Positions 292-31,255 of a stretch of 32,000 bases of DNA are shown one piece after another. A program made the position numbers and the translations under genes. Under the pieces are notes generated by a model. The model had not been told where the DNA came from, searched no databases, and saw only the letters and a program-made list of their open reading frames with translations. Source of the DNA: Candidatus Lokiarchaeum ossiferum (lineage in GTDB: Archaea; Asgardarchaeota; Lokiarchaeia; Sigyniarchaeales; Promethearchaeaceae); the NCBI GenBank assembly GCA_025839675.1, contig CP104013.1:5430001-5462000 (forward strand). Reading direction: 5' to 3'. The first letter of the stretch is position 1. Every line of letters starts with the position of its first letter.

Positions 292-336
292 TATGTGAAG
301 ATAGGAGATTTTTCCTTTTAATTGTTTAGAAGGAAT

Positions 337-347
337 AAAAAAGAAAA
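337..347 (-). terminator. Oligo-U tract (UUUUCUUUUUU on the minus strand), a likely archaeal terminator of the hdrA-vhuD transcript
   Basis: The plus strand reads aaaaaagaaaa at 337-347, about 29 nt downstream (minus sense) of the structured 3' UTR element and upstream of the next gene start at 291. Archaeal termination typically uses T-runs. Confidence 0.4.
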
Positions 348-375: not shown

Positions 376-453
376 CATATATGGGATACATCCTCGCAGG
401 ATTCATCCACCTTGCACTTGGTTTATAGCAAGGGTTCATCTGGGCCATATATG
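376..453 (-). promoter_or_regulatory. Candidate SECIS element(s) in the 3' UTR of the hdrA-vhuD operon: two GAUGAA-prefixed hairpins enclosed by a 9-bp helix
   Basis: The minus-strand RNA is CAUAUAUGG-CCCA-GAUGAA-CCCUUGC-UAUAAACCAAGU-GCAAGG-UG-GAUGAA-UCCU-GCG-AGGA-UGUAUC-CCAUAUAUG. The outer helix pairs 445-453 with 376-384 (9 perfect bp). Hairpin 1 spans 410-434 with an A-rich 12-nt loop. Hairpin 2 spans 391-401. The element begins 24 nt after the vhuD stop, and the two genes upstream carry five in-frame UGA codons. Confidence 0.55.
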
Positions 454-477: not shown

Positions 478-945
478 TTAGACTGTTTTTTTTTTGGCTT
501 TCTTGGCAGCAGCTTTTGCGGCAGCATCAATTTGATGCATTCTTAGTTTAGAAGGCCCTAACCGTCTGACTGTATTATCCATTTCAACTGCAAGTTGTCG
601 GAAGCGTTCTCCTTCAGCCGCACTGATAAAGATCATTTTCAAACGATCAGGTTCTAATCCTATAGTATGCATGATAGTTTTGAGATATTGGACTAATTTT
701 TGGGCATATTCATTGCCATTCACAAAATCACATTCTCCAATATGTCATCCACCTATGATGACTCCATCGGCTCCTTTATTAAAGGCTCGCATGACCATAT
801 CTGCTGATACTCTTGCCGTGCACATTACTCGAACTGGTCGAATACTTGCAGGATATTGGGCTCGAATGGTTCCGGCCATATCGCAGGCGCCGTAACCTCA
901 TTTCCAACATAAGAAAGCTATAATCCGTGGTTCAAAATTTTCCAT
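478..945 (-). CDS. vhuD: F420-non-reducing hydrogenase / heterodisulfide reductase-associated delta subunit (MvhD/VhuD family), a selenoprotein with two in-frame UGA (Sec) codons
   Basis: The ORF track shows only the C-terminal 81 aa (478..723). Reading the same frame upstream through TGA at 745-747 and 898-900 gives MENFEPRIIAFLCWK-U-GYGACDMAGTIRAQYPASIRPVRVMCTARVSADMVMRAFNKGADGVIIGG-U-HIGECDFVNGNEYAQKL... This is collinear with the MvhD motifs FCCNWCSYGGAD and GGCHxGDCHY, with U at Cys positions. GGGGGA lies upstream of ATG 943-945 (SD-like). The gene terminates with TAA. Confidence 0.85.
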
Positions 946-963
946 TTTCATTTATCCCCCTAA

Positions 964-2979
964 TTATGCCTTAGATTTCTCCATAAGGGCATCTTCCAAT
1001 ATTGCGTCAATTAAATCGCCGTATTGTTCATCACGATAGTATCGAATTGATATTGCCGAACTTGGGCACACTGATGCACAAAGACCGCATCCTCGGCAGA
1101 GGATTTCATCGACAAGCGCTCCATCTTCTTGAGTTATTCGAATTGCATTATAAGGACAAGCTTCCGCACACATTCCACATCGTGAGCATTTGGCTTCATC
1201 TGGTACGGCCCGAATAAGTTTAATTCGATATTCTCCATTGGATAATAACTTACCAATAGAAGAGGCTGCACCCTTTGCTTGCATAATGGATTCTGAAATG
1301 GCTTTAGGGCCATGACATGCACCTGATAATGCAATTCCGGGAACATCGGTGTCGACAGTGTTCAATCGCTGGTGGAATTCTTTTAAGAATCCGCTCGGAT
1401 GTTTTGACAGATTTAGGGCTTTATTCAATTTTCCAAAGGTATCCGAAGGCATCATCGCTGCAGATAACACAATTAAATCAAATTCATATTCTTTAATCGT
1501 TTTATCTGGGCTTAAGGTGTCCTCAAGCACCACTATGAGATTTTGGGTCTTTGGATCTTCGCGAACACGAGCTACCTTTGAGCGTATATATTTTACTCCG
1601 TCGCGTCTGGATTGGGTATAATATTCTTCATATCCCTTTCCTGCTGCGCGAATGTCAATATAAGATACAACTACTTCAAGATCTGGATCATGTGTTTTTA
1701 CAAGCTTAGCATTTTTAATGCTAACCATACAACATACTCCACTTGAGCAGTATACATTTCTATTGACATCCCGTGAGCCAACGCATTGGACAAATAAGAC
1801 GCTTTCTGGTGGTTTTCCATCCGATGGTCTATGTAAATGGCCGACTACTGGTCCATTGGGGGCGAGCATTCGTTCAAATTCGAGTTGTGTTACTACGTTC
1901 TCGTATTTGCCATAACCTAAATATCCATCAATTGGTTTGTATTCATCCCAACCTGTTGCTACAATTATTCCTCCTACTTTCACAGAGAAGAGTGTATCTT
2001 CTTGATCAAATTTAACGGCTGTAAGTTCACAAACGTTGGCACAATTGCCACATTTGATACATGCATCCATATCAATTTGAGCTCTCATTGGGACTGCTTG
2101 CGAGAATGCAACATATATTGCTTTTCGTTGTCCTAAGCCTTGATCGAATTCACTACGTGAAACAGCGGGGCACACATCAAAACATGCGCCACACCCATTG
2201 CAATCGGTATTTGTATATCGTGCCTTTTGCAAGATCTCAACTTCAAAGTTTCCTACATAGCCTTCTACTTTGGTAACTTCAGACAACGTTAAAAGTTCAA
2301 TATTTTCATTTCTTTGCACTTCTAACATGACAGGCCCCAAGATTCAGATACTACAATCATCGGTTGGGAATGTGCGGTCAAGCATACTCATTTTTCCACC
2401 AATTGTTGGATTTTGTTCAACTAAATACACTTTATGACCTTGGTTCGCAAGATCTAAAGCGGATTGTAGTCCAGCAACTCCTCCTCCAATGACTAAAACT
2501 GCATCCGATACAGGTACTACTCTTTCGGGTACTACTTCCAATCGGGCCGCTCGTGCAACTCCTGCTCGAACTTGTTCCTTAGCCATTTCCAAAGCTTTCG
2601 CTTTATCTTTTTGGTGGACAAAACTTGTGTGCTCTCGAATATTGACGAACTCCAAATATGAAGGGTCTAACCCGCAATCATTTAAAACTGCTTGGAAAAC
2701 CGGTTCATGTGTTTTTGGGGTTCAAGCCGCAATTACCACTCGATTAACATTGTATTCATCAATATATTTCTTAATGAAATCTGCTCCTGAGGTGGTTCAG
2801 AGAGATAAATTTTTATCCGCAATAACAACATTTGGCAAAGTTTTTGCATATTCTGCTAATGCTGCTATGTCTATTACACCAGCGATATTTACACCACAGT
2901 CACATGGGAAAACAGCAATTCGTATTTCATCTGGATTAGTACTCATTGTCGTATTCTCATTTTGTGTAGAATTTTGCAT
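964..2979 (-). CDS. hdrA: Heterodisulfide reductase subunit A (HdrA), a selenoprotein with three in-frame UGA (Sec) codons
   Basis: ORF-track fragments 2797..2979, 2344..2655 and 964..2340 share one frame and are separated only by TGA at 2797-2799, 2722-2724 and 2344-2346. The joined product reads ...FPCDCGVNIAG...DKNLSL-U-TTSGADFIKKYIDEYNVNRVVIAA-U-TPKTHEPVFQAVLNDCGLDPSYLEFVNIREH...VIGGGVAGL...FPTDDCSI-U-ILGPVMLEV... It is collinear with the HdrA motifs YxCSDPGQ, VVAACSPRxHEP and DCSMCILAPK. It also has the FAD GxGxxG motif, 4Fe-4S ferredoxin CxxCxxCxxxCP motifs, and FVQCVGSRD / YCSSGVCCM. The start could instead be ATG 2944-2946. Confidence 0.9.
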
Positions 2980-3628
2980 TTCAAATGAAAAGATATCTGA
3001 ATGCAGAATTCTGTGTTATATATATCGTTATGTTACTTATCCTTCCATGGATTTACTCTCATTTAACGAACATTGATAATAAGAGGATTCACTCCATATC
3101 ATCGGATAATACTGTGTGTATGAAATTTCCATTTCTATAAGAAATTTTTGCATTGACTCATAAGGAAAAAACTTAAATGAAATTTGGTTCCCAAATGAAA
3201 TCAAAGAAGAATATTTTTTTCGGATTTTTCCCATGGAGTCTGCATCAACCAAGTGGTCAAAAGGGAAGGAAAAAATCGGAGGAAGGGAAGTAAGCAAAGA
3301 TTTTGTGTCTACAAAAAGAAGGAAATCTATTGTTTCCTTTTCATATCCTGCATATACCCCAAACCTTGAATTTCGAGAAGATTATTCGCAGAATGAGAAT
3401 AGTTGGATCTTTCGTTATCAGTCTTTTAGTTATAGATTTGGATTTTAATTCTAAGTTTTTGATTTCTATTGTGCCCTTGCTAAACCATTCTTTGTTTGAC
3501 TAAAACAATTTTGAATAAAACTATCTTATGAAATGGTACGAACTATTAGAAATTGTATGGATAATTAGATATAAAGGATTGATTAATCAAAATGATATAG
3601 GAAGAATAAAAAATGGAGGAACCAATTT

Positions 3629-5823: not shown

Positions 5824-6060
5824 ATGATTGCAGAGGTACATCCTTTCAAAACAGTTTTTGATGAAGAGTGGGATTATGAGTGGGCGGCAGATTGGAACAA
5901 AGTTTCAGCGATATTTACGACCATTGATGATTTGGAACGTCAGTTTGGAGCACTAGATGTGTCCGTTCTAAGGGAATTAACTCAACGGAAATTGATTTTA
6001 GATTTACAGAAATATGCTTATAGTCTTAGTAAAGTCATTGTTGATAAATATCAAGATTAA
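5824..6060 (+). CDS. Hypothetical small acidic protein
   Basis: 78-aa ORF with an ATG start, followed by a T9 tract. No motif recognised. Confidence 0.4.
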   Translation: MIAEVHPFKTVFDEEWDYEWAADWNKVSAIFTTIDDLERQFGALDVSVLRELTQRKLILDLQKYAYSLSKVIVDKYQD

Positions 6061-6089
6061 TTATTTGGGTGAAATCGCTTTGACTGCCC

Positions 6090-6098
6090 TTTTTTTTT
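6090..6098 (+). terminator. T9 tract downstream of the 5824..6060 ORF
   Basis: ccctttttttttgc lies 30 nt after the stop codon. This is the archaeal oligo-T terminator type. Confidence 0.4.
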
Positions 6099-6159
6099 GC
6101 TGTCCCCTTCGTTCTATTTCATTTTGATGACTTCATCTAATACTGGTCAAAGATTTTAG

Positions 6160-6174
6160 AAAAAAGTAAAAAAA
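6160..6174 (-). terminator. Two oligo-U runs (U7 and U6) downstream of ileS
   Basis: The plus strand reads aaaaaagtaaaaaaa, 13-27 nt beyond the ileS stop at 6187 (minus sense). Confidence 0.4.
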
Positions 6175-6186
6175 TAAAGAAACTCC

Positions 6187-9100
6187 TTAGTTTTTAATAA
6201 AATTGATGCGGATCAACCCCAATTTGTCTTTGGAAATGGATTGTGCACAATATCCGCATTTTCCTTCAGATCCACTTTTAATTGCATTAACCATTTTCTC
6301 TCGAATTACGGCGTAGCATGTACCATTTAAACAAACATTGAAATCTTGTGATATTCCTTCATTAATCGGTTCAGATACTTCTTTGGTTAAATTTAGGGGT
6401 TCAGCTGTCACTTTAGTAGTGATATTTTCCTTTAATTCATTCAAAGTTTCGTAAAGGAAGGGGTGTTCAGTAGACAAAGTTAGAGTTATTGATTCTCCAG
6501 TCTGCAATTTATGTTGCTTTCGTAAGAATTGGATCGTACGCAATAAATCTCGCAATATTCGTTCCTGTTGCAATTCTTTAGAGTCTTGTAAATCCAAATA
6601 TACTATGTATTCTCCTACGTCTTTGAATTTAAAGGTGTCATCAACTTTTTCATCTTTAACGATCGTCAATTCCTTCACATTACTCATTTCTTTGATCAAA
6701 TCTTGGAATGGAATTTCTTCCTTTTGATCTTTGGCTTTTATCAATAATCCTTTGGTAGGCCATCGCAATTTTATCTTATTTTCGGCTTTCAATGAACGTA
6801 CTTCATCAATGATGTGGCGAGTTGTTTGCATTTTGCGTTCAGCATTTTCATCGATTAAATCATCATCAATTTGGGGCCATTTGTCCAAATGAATTGATTC
6901 TCGGGTTTGTGTGGGAAGCATTGGGCGAAACATCTTTTGATATATTTCCTCAGTCAACATTGGATTTACAGGGGCCATAATCAAGCATAATCGGTGTAAA
7001 ACATACCAAAGCACTGCTAATGTATTATATTTGTTTGGATTTTCATTATTTACATCGATATCGTCCCGAATTAGGGAGATGTACCATCGAGACAGATCAT
7101 TTACAATGAACTCTTGGAGACGTGCAGGAATTGAGGGTAACTCGTAATTGTCAAATAGATCTGTCACTTCTTTAATTGTACTGTTCACTTTGGAAACTAT
7201 CCATCTATCTGGCGCGGATAATTTATTAATATCCATGGAATGCTTTTTTGGATCAAAGTTATTTAGCATCATTTTTTCTTGGGCAAATAAATAGGTATTC
7301 CAAAAGGTGTTAAGTACTTTGAAGGTGTCGGTATATTCCTTGTAGTCAAAGTTCATATCTTTTCCTGGAGGGGTAGCCATGACACTGTAGAATCGGAAGT
7401 TTTCTATTCCTTTGATATTAGACCAGCGTTTATCGTCTTTAATATATTTCTTTTGACGTTCTTTTCGATTCTTCTTTGGAGTTTTACTTTCCTTAGTCTT
7501 ATCAAATTTGGATGTGGTCAGAAGGGCTGCTTGTTTCCGTAAATGTTCCTTTTGAGATTCAGTCAAAATTTCCACTTCACCGCGAATAACATCAATTGGT
7601 TGGACTGCATTTCCTAAGGATTTGGACATTTTAACTCCATGTGAATTTACCCATCCATGCATATAACATGCTTTATAATTTTTCCGTTTAGATGAAAGCA
7701 TTGCTGCGCAAATCAATGAGTTGAACCATCCACGGATTTGATCTTTTCCTTCCAAGATGAAATCGGCTGGTTCCCAAGTGTCATAATGTTCATGACCGTC
7801 AACAAATTGTTGGGATGCCCACATCACTGATCCTGAATCTAACCAAACATCTGCTAAATCCGGGACCCGCTTCATGGTTCCTTTAGAACATTTTGGGCAT
7901 TTCCAAGTGACTTTGTCTATGATGGGAACGTGGAGATCTTCTGGACATTCACCCGCTTTTTCTTCCAATTCCTTCATCGATCCGATTACATCCATGTTAT
8001 CACAGGCTTCATCATCACATTGCCAAATGGATAATGGGATACCCCAGATTCTTTGGCGTGATATACACCAATCCCGTAATCCCATCAACCATGATTTAAA
8101 ATTGGTATCACCAGCATATTTTGGGATCCAAAAGATATCTTCATTTTCCTTTAACAATTCGTCACGTAATTTTGATGTTGCGAAGAACCATTGGTCGGTT
8201 GCTCGGTATACCAATTTGGTTTTGCATCTCCAACAGTGAGCGTACTCGTGTGCTATGGGTTCTTCGTGTACTAAAGTTTTTTTTTCTTTCAACATATCGA
8301 TAATTTCTCGATTAACTTCATGTACATACTTTCCTTTAAATAAATCTCCTGCTTCACTCGTGTATTCTCCATTCATATCTACTGGTGAGAAAATTGGTAT
8401 TCCATATTCCATTCCGACTTCAAAATCTTCTGGTCCATGACCTGGAGCTGAATGAACCAATCCTGATCCTCCTGTTTCTTGGACGTATTCTCGAGAAAGG
8501 ACTATTGTATGTACTAATGGTTGTTCTTTTTCTAATTCTGCATGGATGGGGACTTCTTTAGCGAATGGATGAATATATTGTTTACCTTCTAAGTCATAAC
8601 CGGTGTAACGCTCTCCATATTCAAACCCATCTTCTGTTTTTAAGGCCAAATTTAATTTGTTTTGTAATAAATCTGAAGTGGCGGCAATTCCCATGATCCA
8701 ATATTCATCCTTTACCCGCATTTTCACATACTCACTATCTGGATTTGCCATGATGTTTGTATTTGAGATTAGAGTCCAAGGTGTGGTTGTCCATATAACA
8801 TAAAATGTCTTTGGATCTTCAACCGATTGAAATTTGACAAAGATGGCGGTATCGGTGATATCATGATATTCATATTCATGTTTTGCCAAAGCAGTTCCGC
8901 ATCGAGGGCAACAATTTTGGGGGCGATATCCTTTATACAAATAATCATTTTCCCATGCCTTCTTCAATGTCCACCAAATTCCTTGAATATAGGTATTTCT
9001 CAGTGTGATATAGGGATTATCCCAGTTCCAGAAATTGCATCCCAATCTTGAAAATTGCTTATTCATAGTATCAATTTGGCTAACTGCATAATTTCTACAT

Positions 9101-14059: not shown

Positions 14060-14419
14060 ATGATAAAAAAGCAGCTTTTTCGGATTTACACCGAACATGA
14101 CTACACCCGAATTAACGATACTAAATTATGTCTGGAGTTATTAGAAGAAATTGCAAAGGACAATGGTACCGATATTTCCCATATCTATTCCGTTAAAATA
14201 TATCCTATCGGCTTGTCTGCACTCATTTTACATGGACCTTCAAACCCACTCACAACTGTTGAACATATTTTGATTAAAAAGGATTATTCACAACCAGCTG
14301 GTTTGAGAAATTATGAGTGTATTGGGAAATTGTATAAAAAAGTCTGGTTGAGTCCTGATAAGACAACAGTTTTTGCAATTTATCGAATTGAATCCAGTCA
14401 ACCTTTAATCTATATTTGA
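14060..14419 (+). CDS. Hypothetical protein
   Basis: 119-aa ORF with an ATG start and a TGA stop. No motif recognised. Confidence 0.45.
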   Translation: MIKKQLFRIYTEHDYTRINDTKLCLELLEEIAKDNGTDISHIYSVKIYPIGLSALILHGPSNPLTTVEHILIKKDYSQPAGLRNYECIGKLYKKVWLSPDKTTVFAIYRIESSQPLIYI

Positions 14420-14461
14420 TACTTTCAAATCTTTTTTATTTGGCCTCCCCAAATTAATTCT

Positions 14462-15106
14462 ATGGGAAAAAAAATTATAGTTATTATGGGTAGTCCCCGA
14501 AAAAATGGTTTAACGGCCTCCCTTACGTCTCATTTTGCAACAAAAATTGATAATTTAAATTCTCTTGAAACCCTTACGGAGGATCATAAAATTGAAGTTG
14601 AAATTTTAAATTTGGTTGACTTTACGGTTGGCCACTGTATAGCGTGTGATTCTTGTTTGCGAAAGCCAAATGTGTGTCCCCTTTCTGAAAAAGATGATAT
14701 GGGTGTTCTGGATAAAAAAATGCAAGAAGCGGATGCAATCTTGGTGGGATCTCCTTCTTATTTCTTTAATGTTCCTGGAATTCTTAAAGATTTAATTGAT
14801 CGCTCTCGTCCTTTAAAAATGGGGAAATATAAACTAAAGGATAAACTTTTCTCAGTGGTATCTGCTTCCGGATTACAAAATGGAGGGCATAATGCTGTTT
14901 TGGATGTCCTAACTCATTGGGCATTGATTCAAGGGATGATCGTTATCAGTGCTTTAGGGCATCCTGTGATTGTATCTAATTTTCCTTCCGAATCTGGGCA
15001 AATGTTAGGTATTAAAGAATTTCGCAAACCATCAGACTTAGGTGAACCTTCACAATATGCTGTGGAGGCCCTCGCAACTCGATTTCATGATCTTCTTAAT
15101 AAATAG
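14462..15106 (+). CDS. Iron-sulfur flavoprotein / NAD(P)H-dependent FMN reductase family (flavodoxin-like fold)
   Basis: It has the N-terminal KIIVIMGSPRKNGLT motif. The compact Cys cluster CIACDSCLRKPNVC (CX2CX2CX6C) is typical of archaeal Isf proteins. It also has DAILVGSPSYFFNVPGILKDLIDR. Confidence 0.75.
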   Translation: MGKKIIVIMGSPRKNGLTASLTSHFATKIDNLNSLETLTEDHKIEVEILNLVDFTVGHCIACDSCLRKPNVCPLSEKDDMGVLDKKMQEADAILVGSPSYFFNVPGILKDLIDRSRPLKMGKYKLKDKLFSVVSASGLQNGGHNAVLDVLTHWALIQGMIVISALGHPVIVSNFPSESGQMLGIKEFRKPSDLGEPSQYAVEALATRFHDLLNK

Positions 15107-29167: not shown

Positions 29168-29824
29168 TTGGTCCGCATAAATATGTCTGGTGAGTTATTT
29201 TGGAAGATAGTTTTTTATGGAAGTGCAGGAACAGGAAAAACTACCATTATTGATACTTTACATAGAAAGACACTCGAAAATCCGGATTATAATCTCGAAC
29301 CCACCGGTCAAGTCACAAAAATTGCGAAAGCTAGTGGGGCCACGTTGTATTTTGATAGAGGCATTTTTCAATCCAGAATTCAAACAAATATTTTTTATCA
29401 CATTTTCACAGTAGCTGGACAGGAAAATTTAGCTCCTTTACGAAAGAAAATTCTCGATGGTGTTGATGCCATCGCTTTTGTTTTTGACGGGCAAAGATCA
29501 ATGTTAGACCGTAATCTAAAATCTCTTGATGAATTGAAAGAAACTTTGGGTCCCGCACTTATCCATGATATCCCAGTACTTATTTTAATCAATAAACAAG
29601 ATCTTCCCGATTCATTGAAACAAGAAGATGTATTTGAGATATTTTCTCGTCCAAATTTTCCTATATCTCAAAAAGAACTAGAACATCAAAATTTTGTAGG
29701 GTTCTTTGAAACTTGCGCACTTTATTCAAAGGAAATGAATATTTGTTCGAGTTTTATTGAATTAATTGAACAATTGTCTACGGACCCAAAATTGATCCCT
29801 AAACATCTAATCCAAAAAATTTAA
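29168..29824 (+). CDS. MglA-type small GTPase (Ras superfamily)
   Basis: G1 is YGSAGTGKTT. G3 is TVAGQE, with Thr in place of the usual Asp, as in MglA (TxxGQ). G4 is NKQD. ATLYFD and VDAIAFVFD blocks are as in MglA. GAGGT lies 6 nt upstream of TTG 29168 (alternative ATG 29183). Confidence 0.75.
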   Translation: MVRINMSGELFWKIVFYGSAGTGKTTIIDTLHRKTLENPDYNLEPTGQVTKIAKASGATLYFDRGIFQSRIQTNIFYHIFTVAGQENLAPLRKKILDGVDAIAFVFDGQRSMLDRNLKSLDELKETLGPALIHDIPVLILINKQDLPDSLKQEDVFEIFSRPNFPISQKELEHQNFVGFFETCALYSKEMNICSSFIELIEQLSTDPKLIPKHLIQKI

Positions 29825-29851: not shown

Positions 29852-31255
29852 TTATAAATAGGTTTCAATCAATGAATTGATTCGATTTTTGAATTCTGGC
29901 ATCAATTGATTTATATTGTTAATTTCAGTATCTTGATTTCTTAATAAACACAAAAGATAGACATCAATGTTATTCAAAGGTAGCTTGTAGAAAGTAATGA
30001 TATCATTGTCCATCTGCCACGTGGCTGTATTATGTTTAAGTAATCGGAACTCAGAAAATGTTTTAAACAAATTTTGAAAATGAGGTGCGGACATTTCTGA
30101 AACTTGACTGGAAACTTTATTTGTCGAGAAATCAGAAAGAATTACACTATTCTCATTGATTAATAAGAGTGCTTGAGCATTAATTTCCTGTGCAAACCAT
30201 TTCAATTGTTCGCGCAAAATCTCCCTATTTGGGGACATGAGCGAAATCCCTTCTGAAAAAGACTTATTGAGACTATAAGCGTTAAAGATTGATGTGTTAA
30301 AAAATTTGACTCGAAAATCCTTGGAATTTTCAAGTATTCGATTTTTAAGCAATTCAATTTTTTTTGTTAACTCATGATCTTCTTTGATATCAGGATCAGC
30401 TTTGTGAAAATTAACAACAATTGGTGGGTGTTGTTTAAAGGATCGAAATATATTTAAAATTTGAAAGAGAAATTCTAAGGCTTCCACATAACGCGTTTCA
30501 TCTCTGATATCAATTAAAAAATTTAATAAATTGGTATCGAAGAGATAAAGATCGGCTTGTTTCAGAAAATTCTGCCGGTATTTTAGCTGTCCGCCCACAT
30601 CCCATTCGAGTAAACTTTGCCCCAACATTTGATCTTGGGAACGTTCGATTCCTTTAGTGGGCTTTATTCCTGTTAGTTCACTATATCGTTGCTTAATAGC
30701 TCTTAGATAACTTGTCTTTCCGCTCGCATCCAAACCAGTAAATAATAATTTCAATTTTCGTGCATTGCTTATCGGTGAATTTACGTTTGAAACAAATTTA
30801 TCCACTTTTTCTAAAAGTTCCACCATAAATTCTTTTGAATCTTTTAGATAATTATCATGAGTTATTTTATCTGCTGTTTCTGAGAAATATATTGATAAAT
30901 CCTTCATATTCTCATATAAGAACGCTGCATGATTTTCATCAACAAGAATTGAAATTGTGGAGGCTTTTGCTTGGCCGCGAGCTTCCTTATCGTGGATAAG
31001 GAAGAAATATGTTAATCCGGTGAGACATAAATCTGGAAATGGTAAGATACCGAAATATTTGATGGAATCAAAAACTTGCCCTTCTTGGTAGATTTGTTCT
31101 CCCATGAGAAGTGAAATAGTTTTCATTGAAATGTTGATCTTATGGATTTCTGACATGTCTTCTGGAAAAGTTACCACGGGGGTGGGACCTTCATACTCAA
31201 AGACGGCAAAAATCAAACCCTTTATTATATTCGTTAACGATATTGCAGTTCCCAA
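29852..31255 (-). CDS. Multidomain GTPase: N-terminal longin-like domain, Arf/Arl-like GTPase domain, C-terminal roadblock-like domain
   Basis: 467 aa. The central domain carries Arf-family signatures: G1 GLDASGKT (Arf: GLDAAGKT), PTKG, and G3 WDVGGQ (identical to Arf). G4 is degenerate (FHKAD). The N-terminal ~130 aa (LIFAVFEYEGPTPVVTFPED...YFGILPFPD...) and C-terminal ~130 aa have alternating beta/alpha patterns suggestive of longin and roadblock folds; that is an inference. TTG start with GAGGGG 6 nt upstream. Confidence 0.7.
   Translation of the reverse strand: MGTAISLTNIIKGLIFAVFEYEGPTPVVTFPEDMSEIHKINISMKTISLLMGEQIYQEGQVFDSIKYFGILPFPDLCLTGLTYFFLIHDKEARGQAKASTISILVDENHAAFLYENMKDLSIYFSETADKITHDNYLKDSKEFMVELLEKVDKFVSNVNSPISNARKLKLLFTGLDASGKTSYLRAIKQRYSELTGIKPTKGIERSQDQMLGQSLLEWDVGGQLKYRQNFLKQADLYLFDTNLLNFLIDIRDETRYVEALEFLFQILNIFRSFKQHPPIVVNFHKADPDIKEDHELTKKIELLKNRILENSKDFRVKFFNTSIFNAYSLNKSFSEGISLMSPNREILREQLKWFAQEINAQALLLINENSVILSDFSTNKVSSQVSEMSAPHFQNLFKTFSEFRLLKHNTATWQMDNDIITFYKLPLNNIDVYLLCLLRNQDTEINNINQLMPEFKNRINSLIETYL

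Follow-up and report, generated by a model that had tools for sequence, protein, structure and literature searches.

How are two genes expressed when five in-frame UGA codons interrupt them? This question is raised by a 32,000-nucleotide (nt) stretch of the Candidatus Lokiarchaeum ossiferum genome (contig CP104013.1, positions 5,430,001 to 5,462,000; hereafter the window), whose minus strand carries the gene hdrA followed by vhuD (mvhD). Translation of the hdrA frame revealed internal stops of the TGA type only, at codons 61, 86 and 212; the vhuD frame contained internal TGAs at codons 18 and 69. There were no frameshifts and no internal TAA or TAG codons in either frame. An earlier reading made from the DNA letters (the sequence-only reading) had assembled the hdrA pieces into one frame split by three TGAs, and vhuD into one split by two; its coordinates were exact for both genes. 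The findings described below make it very probable that the locus is a bicistronic selenoprotein operon, in which all five UGAs are decoded as selenocysteine (Sec) by means of one kink-turn selenocysteine insertion sequence (SECIS) element in the 3′ untranslated region (UTR) of vhuD. The genes and the interrupting codons are as follows.

964..2979, minus strand: hdrA, a frame of 672 codons for 671 amino acids (aa), stop TAA, from translation
2797..2799, minus strand: UGA codon 61 of hdrA, predicted Sec, in the N-terminal domain, aligned to Cys46 of 5ODC_A
2722..2724, minus strand: UGA codon 86 of hdrA, predicted Sec, aligned to Cys71 of 5ODC_A and homologous to VhuD Sec69
2344..2346, minus strand: UGA codon 212 of hdrA, predicted Sec, at the canonical HdrA Sec site (DCxxU)
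952..963, minus strand: hdrA-vhuD spacer of 12 nt, with a GGGGG ribosome-binding motif at 960..956, read from the sequence
478..951, minus strand: vhuD/mvhD, 158 codons for 157 aa, a [2Fe-2S] subunit of the FlpD family, stop TAA, from translation
898..900, minus strand: UGA codon 18 of vhuD, predicted Sec, in a CxxU motif, equivalent to Cys16 of M. marburgensis MvhD
745..747, minus strand: UGA codon 69 of vhuD, predicted Sec, in the motif GG-U-H-IGE-C

The joined HdrA, with X at the TGA sites, matched 9SFI_A (E 3e-206) and 5ODC_A (E 1.2e-191) from end to end, and also aligned with the solved HdrA subunits 8RVU_a and 7BKB_A. Codons 61 and 86 were aligned to Cys in both 9SFI_A and 5ODC_A; codon 212 was aligned to Cys197 in 5ODC_A and to X (Sec) in 9SFI_A. 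VhuD matched the MvhD-type subunit 8RVU_F (E 1e-36), with both X positions on Cys. The sequence-only reading had proposed an alignment of the joined translations to the HdrA and MvhD/VhuD families, and in these alignments (5ODC_A, 8RVU_F) U coincided with Cys. HdrA has four domains: an N-terminal MvhD-like Fe-S domain, a FAD/thioredoxin-reductase-like domain, an inserted ferredoxin and a C-terminal 2×[4Fe-4S] ferredoxin. Pfam detected FAD-binding and four Fer4 stretches in HdrA, and FlpD (PF02662) in VhuD at 152.8 bits (cut-off 22.3). HdrA scored below the cut-offs of the NCBIfam methanogen HdrA/HdrA2 models (NF040770, 757.7 vs. 1100; NF041778, 564.9 vs. 1400), and VhuD below that of the strict NCBIfam VhuD model (NF045873, 139.8 bits vs. 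215). Neither hdrBC (CCG-domain) genes nor hydrogenase genes (vhuAGU) were found among the 26 window open reading frames (ORFs) scanned against Pfam; partner proteins of HdrA may be encoded elsewhere than in the window. Because of these sub-cut-off scores and the lack of hdrBC and hydrogenase genes in the window, the safe names of the products are "HdrA-family flavoprotein" and "Sec-containing MvhD homologue". The former is an HdrA-family protein and not a proven subunit of the CoB-CoM heterodisulfide reductase, so that no role in CoM-S-S-CoB reduction is implied; "vhuD" is used here solely in the sense of the latter name.

Interchange of Sec and Cys at fixed Cys columns is a standard signature of selenoproteins. 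For each of the five columns, codons were tabulated across 80 hdrA loci of species-representative genomes and 11 more obtained via exact-protein look-ups (loci are given L numbers below where they must be told apart). HdrA column 61 held Cys in 78 loci and TGA in 8, and column 86 held Cys in 79 and TGA in 7, with no other codon at either position; column 212 held 65 Cys, 19 TGA and 4 other codons. VhuD column 18 comprised 48 Cys, 11 TGA and one Ser, and column 69 comprised 48 Cys and 11 TGA with nothing else. VhuD columns 15, 44 and 74 were Cys in all relatives. The claim of the sequence-only reading that all five UGAs fall on conserved Cys was thus borne out, the columns being Cys or TGA apart from the few codons noted at 212 and 18. 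The chance that five random stops would all fall on Cys/Sec positions is ~1e-7, as estimated from the frequency of such positions (28 of 671 hdrA codons, 6 of 157 vhuD codons).

The distribution of TGAs varied among relatives. The same set of three hdrA and two vhuD TGAs (3+2) was found in the closed genome of Promethearchaeum syntrophicum MK-D1 (L003), in the Promethearchaeum metagenome-assembled genomes L004 and L005, and in CP163304.1 (L082). L006 and L085 had the same three TGAs in hdrA, their vhuD being cut off at the contig end. Harpocratesius (2+2) and two relatives had hdrA TGAs at columns 61 and 212, and TGT/TGC at 86. Other loci had hdrA TGAs at 86 and 212, or at 212 alone, and more distant Loki loci were 1+2. 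Cys was present throughout in Heimdall-, Hod-, Hermod- and Jord-archaeal, methanogen and most bacterial loci.

Two further observations were made on these columns. A TGA was also present at HdrA column 28 (window codon 2898-2896, which is Cys in the window) in seven related loci, including L087, L089, L090 and L092; this column corresponds to the latter Cys of the CxC motif near the N-terminus, and the HdrA-N/VhuD alignment makes it the homologue of VhuD Sec18. Bacterial hdrA genes with TGA at column 212 were found in L015 (Anaerolineaceae), L022 (Desulfobacterales) and L029 (Bacillota), the last with TGA also at VhuD column 69; these hdrA genes presumably encode selenoproteins that depend on a bacterial SECIS.

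We compared the window with the near-identical CP163304.1; 56 of 5,828 aligned bases differed (~1%). In hdrA and vhuD there were 24 synonymous codon differences and one non-synonymous difference, and all five TGAs were retained. Each inter-TGA fragment was 58-90% identical to its MK-D1 counterpart, with orthologue identities of ~81% for HdrA and ~73% for VhuD. The C-terminal HdrA fragment differed from XEO79897.1 at one residue (I350T), and clusters with UYP48336.1; both records are assigned to Candidatus Lokiarchaeum ossiferum, which the window matches at ~99% identity. Judged by these codon changes, purifying selection acts across the TGAs. In the GenBank annotation of CP163304.1 (2850-5351), five coding sequences stand in place of the two genes, with 60, 80 and 454 aa for hdrA and 44 and 81 aa for vhuD; two stretches lack any annotation, namely the 24 aa from Sec61 to Sec86 and the initial 17 codons of vhuD.

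The vhuD 3′ UTR contains a candidate for the signal that would recode these codons. It folded into a closed structure (z = -2.69) with the following parts.

376..453, minus strand: SECIS-like element (eukaryote-like "lokiSECIS" type) in the vhuD 3′ UTR
453-445 paired with 384-376, minus strand: closing helix P1
442-441, minus strand: invariant CA
439-436, minus strand: core AUGA
434-427 paired with 416-409, minus strand: stem P2
426-417, minus strand: apical loop, with invariant AAAC at 424-421
407-404, minus strand: core GAUG
402-390, minus strand: mini-hairpin P3, with an NGCRA loop

The AUGA core lies 38 nt past the vhuD stop, and 308, 461, 1,907, 2,285 and 2,360 nt downstream of the five UGAs. 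The arrangement AUGA-28 nt-GAUG was present behind vhuD in all close relatives, and also directly behind a vhuD-less Sec-type hdrA paralogue (L008, L089, L090, L092). In a 14-sequence alignment, four motifs were invariant: CA-N-AUGA at the 5′ side, AAAC within the apical loop, GAUG 3′ of the stem, and UC..GCRA..GA in the mini-hairpin. Eukaryotic SECIS elements are characterized by a kink-turn AUGA/GA quartet and an AAR apical motif (Rfam RF00031). AUGA against GAUG in the window element is able to form the quartet A.G, U.U, G.A, A.G of this eukaryotic core.

A three-helix covariance model gave the window element 81 bits, and the next best match 12.3 bits, in a search of the 32 kb on both strands with filters off; this single match indicates that there is no second element within or between hdrA and vhuD. 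When the model was applied to 344 kb of related loci, matches were found behind Sec-type genes only, bar one degenerate partial copy in MK-D1. In the model-fitted alignment, 89.6% of cells were paired (34-43% in slid controls), 18 of 20 base pairs had changes on both sides, and the observed values were reached in 0 of 500 shuffles; these pairing and covariation numbers are somewhat inflated by the fit of the alignment to the model. RNAalifold recovered P2 and P3 independently from a plain MAFFT alignment, and compensatory changes in P1 were visible in the raw sequences (AUAUAUGG/CCAUAUAU, CUCGAUGG/CCAUCGAG and CAAUUAG/CUAAUUG). None of 186 bases of the vhuD 3′ UTR differed between two strains whose flanking DNA was 1-1.5% apart. 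Stem and loop lengths lay within the type I model of PMC11227280, and the element conforms to the lokiSECIS/eSECIS-like pattern of an AUGA...GA core, a stem of 7-15 base pairs (bp) and an adenine-led loop. Local hairpins ~11 nt 3′ of the UGAs, as expected for a bacterial-type SECIS, were not significant at any of the five sites (z -1.59, -1.42, -0.60, +0.39 and -1.13). P3 was considered as a Methanococcus-type SECIS, which has a GAA_A internal bulge and an upper helix rich in G-C, and was rejected because GAA is not conserved; relatives have GAG, GGG, GGA, GCG or GCA.

Related loci showed several variants of the element. In MK-D1, a 29.6-bit match to the SECIS model at 6831-6906, ~0.9 kb downstream of the real vhuD SECIS, repeats the 3′ half of the element (CUUUGAGCGAGAAAGAUGAGUCCUGCAAGGAUG...CCAUA) without AUGA. 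Two small minus-strand ORFs (6086-6427 and 6469-6708) are located between the two copies, and the second copy resembles a partly duplicated element at the edge of an inserted cassette. A more distant Loki hdrA-vhuD pair with 1+2 Sec (L007, Promethearchaeia ABR02, ~5844-5885) has a textbook lokiSECIS whose AUGA overlaps the vhuD UGA stop (AAUGA-CUCUUGCGA-GAAAAUAUUAG-UCGCAAGAC-GA), followed by a different 7-bp hairpin; this element escapes the clade-specific covariance model R1. Three-helix copies behind vhuD-less hdrA were located at 4484-4569 in L089, 4413-4498 in L090, 4407-4492 in L092 and 5422-5507 in L008. This second Sec-type hdrA clade includes a Lokiarchaeum ossiferum paralogue (P0023/P0125; P0023 at L090). 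Its hdrA genes have TGA at the canonical site, and those of L089, L090 and L092 also at column 28; in the latter three loci, hdrA adjoins a convergent ~970-aa Fdh/NuoG-like molybdopterin gene and a divergent CCG-domain/TPR gene.

Three other explanations of the interrupted frames were weighed against Sec decoding. If the genes were pseudogenes, or the TGAs sequencing or assembly errors, no full-length protein would be made, and the fragmentary GenBank annotation described above might appear to agree with this. However, the same TGAs recur in independent assemblies, two closed genomes among them; all five lie on Cys columns; and frameshifts and TAA or TAG stops are lacking. The 24:1 ratio of codon changes, together with the retained TGAs and the conservation of the fragments, excludes pseudogenes and assembly errors for practical purposes, and this explanation is already effectively refuted; we assign it a negligible probability. 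Alternatively, translation could end at each UGA and the pieces could act as separate subunits, in line with the finding that some archaeal HdrA homologues are naturally split or short of domains (PMC9012536). Against such split genes, neither a start codon nor a ribosome-binding site follows the TGAs, and close orthologues are cut at different positions. The breaks interrupt folded domains at Cys residues active in metal binding or redox chemistry, and the 24 aa that separate codons 61 and 86 could not fold by themselves. We therefore consider split genes very improbable. A somewhat less remote alternative, although still improbable, is that UGA is read as a non-Sec amino acid, such as Cys or Trp, with the help of a near-cognate or suppressor tRNA or in a partly reassigned code. 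Cys would be functionally acceptable at all five sites, and no Sec machinery was seen in the window. However, the 27 window ORFs include 23 that end in TAA, three in TGA and one in TAG, and no other window coding frame spans a TGA; the sequence-only reading had named plain TGA stops at 14419, 16311 and 21842, and all three proved real. The recoded TGAs are confined to genes with a conserved SECIS-like element behind them, and position 212 is a demonstrated Sec in Methanococcus. For the sister genus, represented by MK-D1, the published catalogue lists SelD, VhuU and PrxL of the Sec type (PMC11227280).

Sec decoding of the five UGAs must itself be set against several results that weigh on the other side. 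ORF scans of the window alone found none of the Sec machinery genes PSTK, SepSecS, EFSec and SelD, and ARAGORN detected no tRNA in the window, hence no tRNA-Sec. A SelD search with an MK-D1 fragment, taken from a gapped supplement alignment, gave one match of 129 aa, which is uninformative on L. ossiferum. Selenium is not known from experiment in any Asgard protein. No SECIS family was detected in the window by Rfam, whether at gathering thresholds or permissively, and the only matches returned were chance-level snoRNA/IRES ones. The SECIS stem in the window has just six Watson-Crick pairs flanked by mismatches, with 28 nt between the core halves, and the published lokiSECIS has 9 bp + 11 nt (PMC4989117). 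An Rfam SECIS match was not to be expected because published tools also miss lokiSECIS, the SECIS tools of 2016 having found no match to it (PMC4989117). Sec machinery in this species has indirect support from its second Sec-type hdrA locus, which carries the same SECIS, and from the reported occurrence of the Sec trait in 85.9% of Lokiarchaeia/Helarchaeales genomes (PMC11227280). The alternation of Sec and Cys, the selection across the TGAs, the ordinary TGA stops and the single SECIS-like element are in agreement with the sequence-only reading, which had called for site-specific recoding of UGA and not a reassigned code; selenium insertion at the five UGAs is inferred from them.

In the mechanism that we propose for Sec decoding, one bicistronic mRNA would carry hdrA, vhuD and the 3′-UTR SECIS. 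The 12-nt spacer between the two genes implies such an mRNA, and co-transcription is inferred accordingly. Two elements outside the genes could delimit it.

3016..3025, minus strand: candidate TATA box ATATATATAA, ~40 nt upstream of the hdrA ATG, read from the sequence
334..347, minus strand: T-rich run UUUUCUUUUUUAUU, 3′ of the SECIS, candidate archaeal transcription terminator, read from the sequence

The first is a candidate for the TATA box of hdrA; the second is likely an archaeal terminator, by which the SECIS would be kept on the operon mRNA. Sec-tRNA(Sec) would be delivered to the five UGAs by the archaeal Sec-specific elongation factor, and the single kink-turn-type SECIS would direct recoding in both cistrons. 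The predicted products are a full-length electron-bifurcating HdrA-type flavoprotein and an MvhD-type [2Fe-2S] partner. The sequence-only reading had pointed to decoding of UGAs over ~2.4 kb from the sole 3′ UTR; the distance is correct (2.36 kb), but such decoding is not new, being part of an already published model.

The aligned positions suggest functions for the Sec residues. HdrA codon 212 corresponds to Cys197 of M. thermolithotrophicus and to Sec197 of M. maripaludis. In the cryo-EM structure of the M. maripaludis super-assembly, Sec197 belongs to a Cys-Sec pair situated between FAD and the N-terminal cluster (PMC13518236), and earlier structural work described the equivalent Cys197, together with N-domain cysteines, as a ligand of the partner subunit's N-terminal cluster (PMC9012536). 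On the cysteines that bind this cluster, open-access papers gave a general statement only (PMC9012536), and no residue numbers were found in them. MvhD Cys16, His68 and Asp71 have been discussed as part of the path from the [2Fe-2S] cluster to FAD (PMC13580544); U18 of VhuD is equivalent to this Cys16, and the residues beside U69 are equivalent to His68 and Asp71. The pairwise alignment of the HdrA N-domain with VhuD was weak (E 0.034) and in register, with C26 on C15, C28 on U18, U61 on C44 and U86 on U69. This register indicates that Sec sites recur at homologous positions of two MvhD-fold domains. The Sec residues are probably redox-relay residues or cluster ligands. Their likely surroundings are two clusters, namely the mobile N-terminal [4Fe-4S] cluster and the [2Fe-2S] cluster of VhuD, as well as the CxxU pair close to FAD.

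The 2016 study of Lokiarchaeota stated that these Sec sites are not cluster ligands (PMC4989117). The HdrA N-domain has only four conserved Cys positions; if, as the literature would suggest, three N-domain Cys and Cys197′ bind the shuttle cluster, then U212 and one or both of U61 and U86 would be selenium ligands. The 2016 statement on ligands predates any HdrA structure. A broader proposal, which we regard as possible and rather doubtful, has two parts. The SECIS of the clade may be a three-helix unit (P1, the kink-turn hairpin and P3) rather than the simple AUGA-stem-loop-GA hairpin published so far, and may act as a platform that serves up to five UGAs at distances up to 2.4 kb, and the correspondence of HdrA 28/86 with VhuD 18/69, together with U212, may place at least two Se atoms around the shuttle [4Fe-4S] cluster. 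The three-helix architecture refers to the hdrA-associated SECIS of the Lokiarchaeum/Promethearchaeum/Harpocratesius clade, in which the mini-hairpin has the invariant sequence GAUG-NN-UCC-NGCRA-GGA-UG with a GNRA-like loop.

Other features of the window were also noted. We considered a sixth selenoprotein, in which the ORF at 14060-14419 (119 aa, TGA stop) would be joined to an in-frame FMN reductase ORF at 14462-15106 (both plus strand), and rejected it in favor of two genes. The 14-codon linker within 14060-15106 contains no intervening stop and is non-coding-like, and the FMN reductase ORF has a normal N-terminus of its own (MGKKI...GSPR), at profile position 2. Two small GTPase genes of the Arf/Gtr1-RagA type are located at 29168-29824 (plus strand) and 29852-31255 (minus strand); the latter encodes 467 aa with an N-terminal extension and a weak Folliculin-family match. 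These GTPases are typical Asgard eukaryotic-signature proteins. The window also encodes archaeal Nre and an L13e-like protein, consistent with an Asgard genome. A C/D-box snoRNA-like Rfam match (SNORD58) at 1390-1463 on the minus strand, inside hdrA, is probably due to chance (24 bits, E 0.064; gathering score 42).

Much of this biology has been described before. Mariotti et al. (2016) reported multi-Sec HdrA in Lokiarchaeota with up to four Sec residues over five positions, VhuD with two Sec residues, hdrA and vhuD in tandem without exception and separated by minimal spacers, one lokiSECIS, placed behind vhuD and nowhere else, for up to six UGAs over ~2 kb, and hdrA genes that always end in UAA or UAG (PMC4989117). 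The sequence-only reading was right that multi-Sec selenoproteins are known from Lokiarchaeota (PMC4989117). It was mistaken in placing three Sec residues in one HdrA near the known extreme, given the four already published (PMC4989117) and the 3+2 set in MK-D1 (PMC11227280). A 2024 Asgard study in ISME J catalogued 1,439 selenoproteins, and its sequence files contain MK-D1 HdrA with X at the same three positions and VhuD with X at the same two (PMC11227280). L. ossiferum was not found in the dataset of that study when its name was searched in the supplementary files, and no discussion of it as a Sec user was found in the searchable literature. Since the Sec pattern, the shared SECIS and the MK-D1 orthologue are already published, the locus adds, at most, one further orthologue of an operon already on record; multi-Sec recoding with one distal 3′-UTR signal is supported here and is already known.

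The locus is nevertheless of value as a clean case, from a cultivated lineage, of the most extreme Sec recoding known in prokaryotes (five UGAs and two cistrons with one distal, eukaryote-like SECIS), and it bears on the origin of eukaryotic-style Sec decoding in Asgard archaea. The GenBank records of L. ossiferum, in which both genes are fragmented, can be corrected. The analysis also delimits an RNA element that covaries strongly and comes from organisms now cultured, and offers a structure-informed hypothesis on extra Sec residues in flavin-based electron bifurcation.

Compared with the Loki pairs of PMC4989117, which came from Lokiarchaeum sp. GC14_75, the present operon belongs to a different Lokiarchaeum and has the same organization: vhuD follows hdrA closely on one strand; HdrA has several Sec residues, the canonical site near residue 200 always among them, and VhuD has two; a single SECIS, whose core is AUGA...GA and whose A-rich loop ends in G, comes just past vhuD; and hdrA stops at UAA rather than UGA. 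The element differs from the lokiSECIS of PMC4989117 in that this clade has 28 nt (not 29) between the core halves, six Watson-Crick pairs plus mismatches, and a loop of 10-12 nt. A covarying closing helix and a conserved 3′ mini-hairpin are present here and are not described in the parts of PMC4989117 and PMC11227280 that were read. Whereas PMC4989117 paired all Loki hdrA genes with vhuD, vhuD-less Sec-type hdrA paralogues with a SECIS of their own do exist. MK-D1 has the same Sec positions and SECIS architecture in a different genus (PMC11227280).

Methanococcales and Methanopyrus share with the present operon the canonical HdrA Sec (DCxxU), the two VhuD Sec positions and the hdrA-vhuD linkage; they differ in having an archaeal SECIS with a GAA_A bulge and a single Sec in HdrA. 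The methanogen genes are situated with vhu hydrogenase genes and work with HdrBC in methanogenesis, whereas none of those partners is encoded in the window. No SBP2 is known in Loki (PMC4989117). In comparison with the eukaryotic SECIS (RF00031), the window element has a much shorter helix II, an additional hairpin at the 3′ side of its internal loop and no Rfam match; it shares with the eukaryotic element a quartet-capable core, unpaired adenines in the apical loop, a site in the 3′ UTR and action at a distance.

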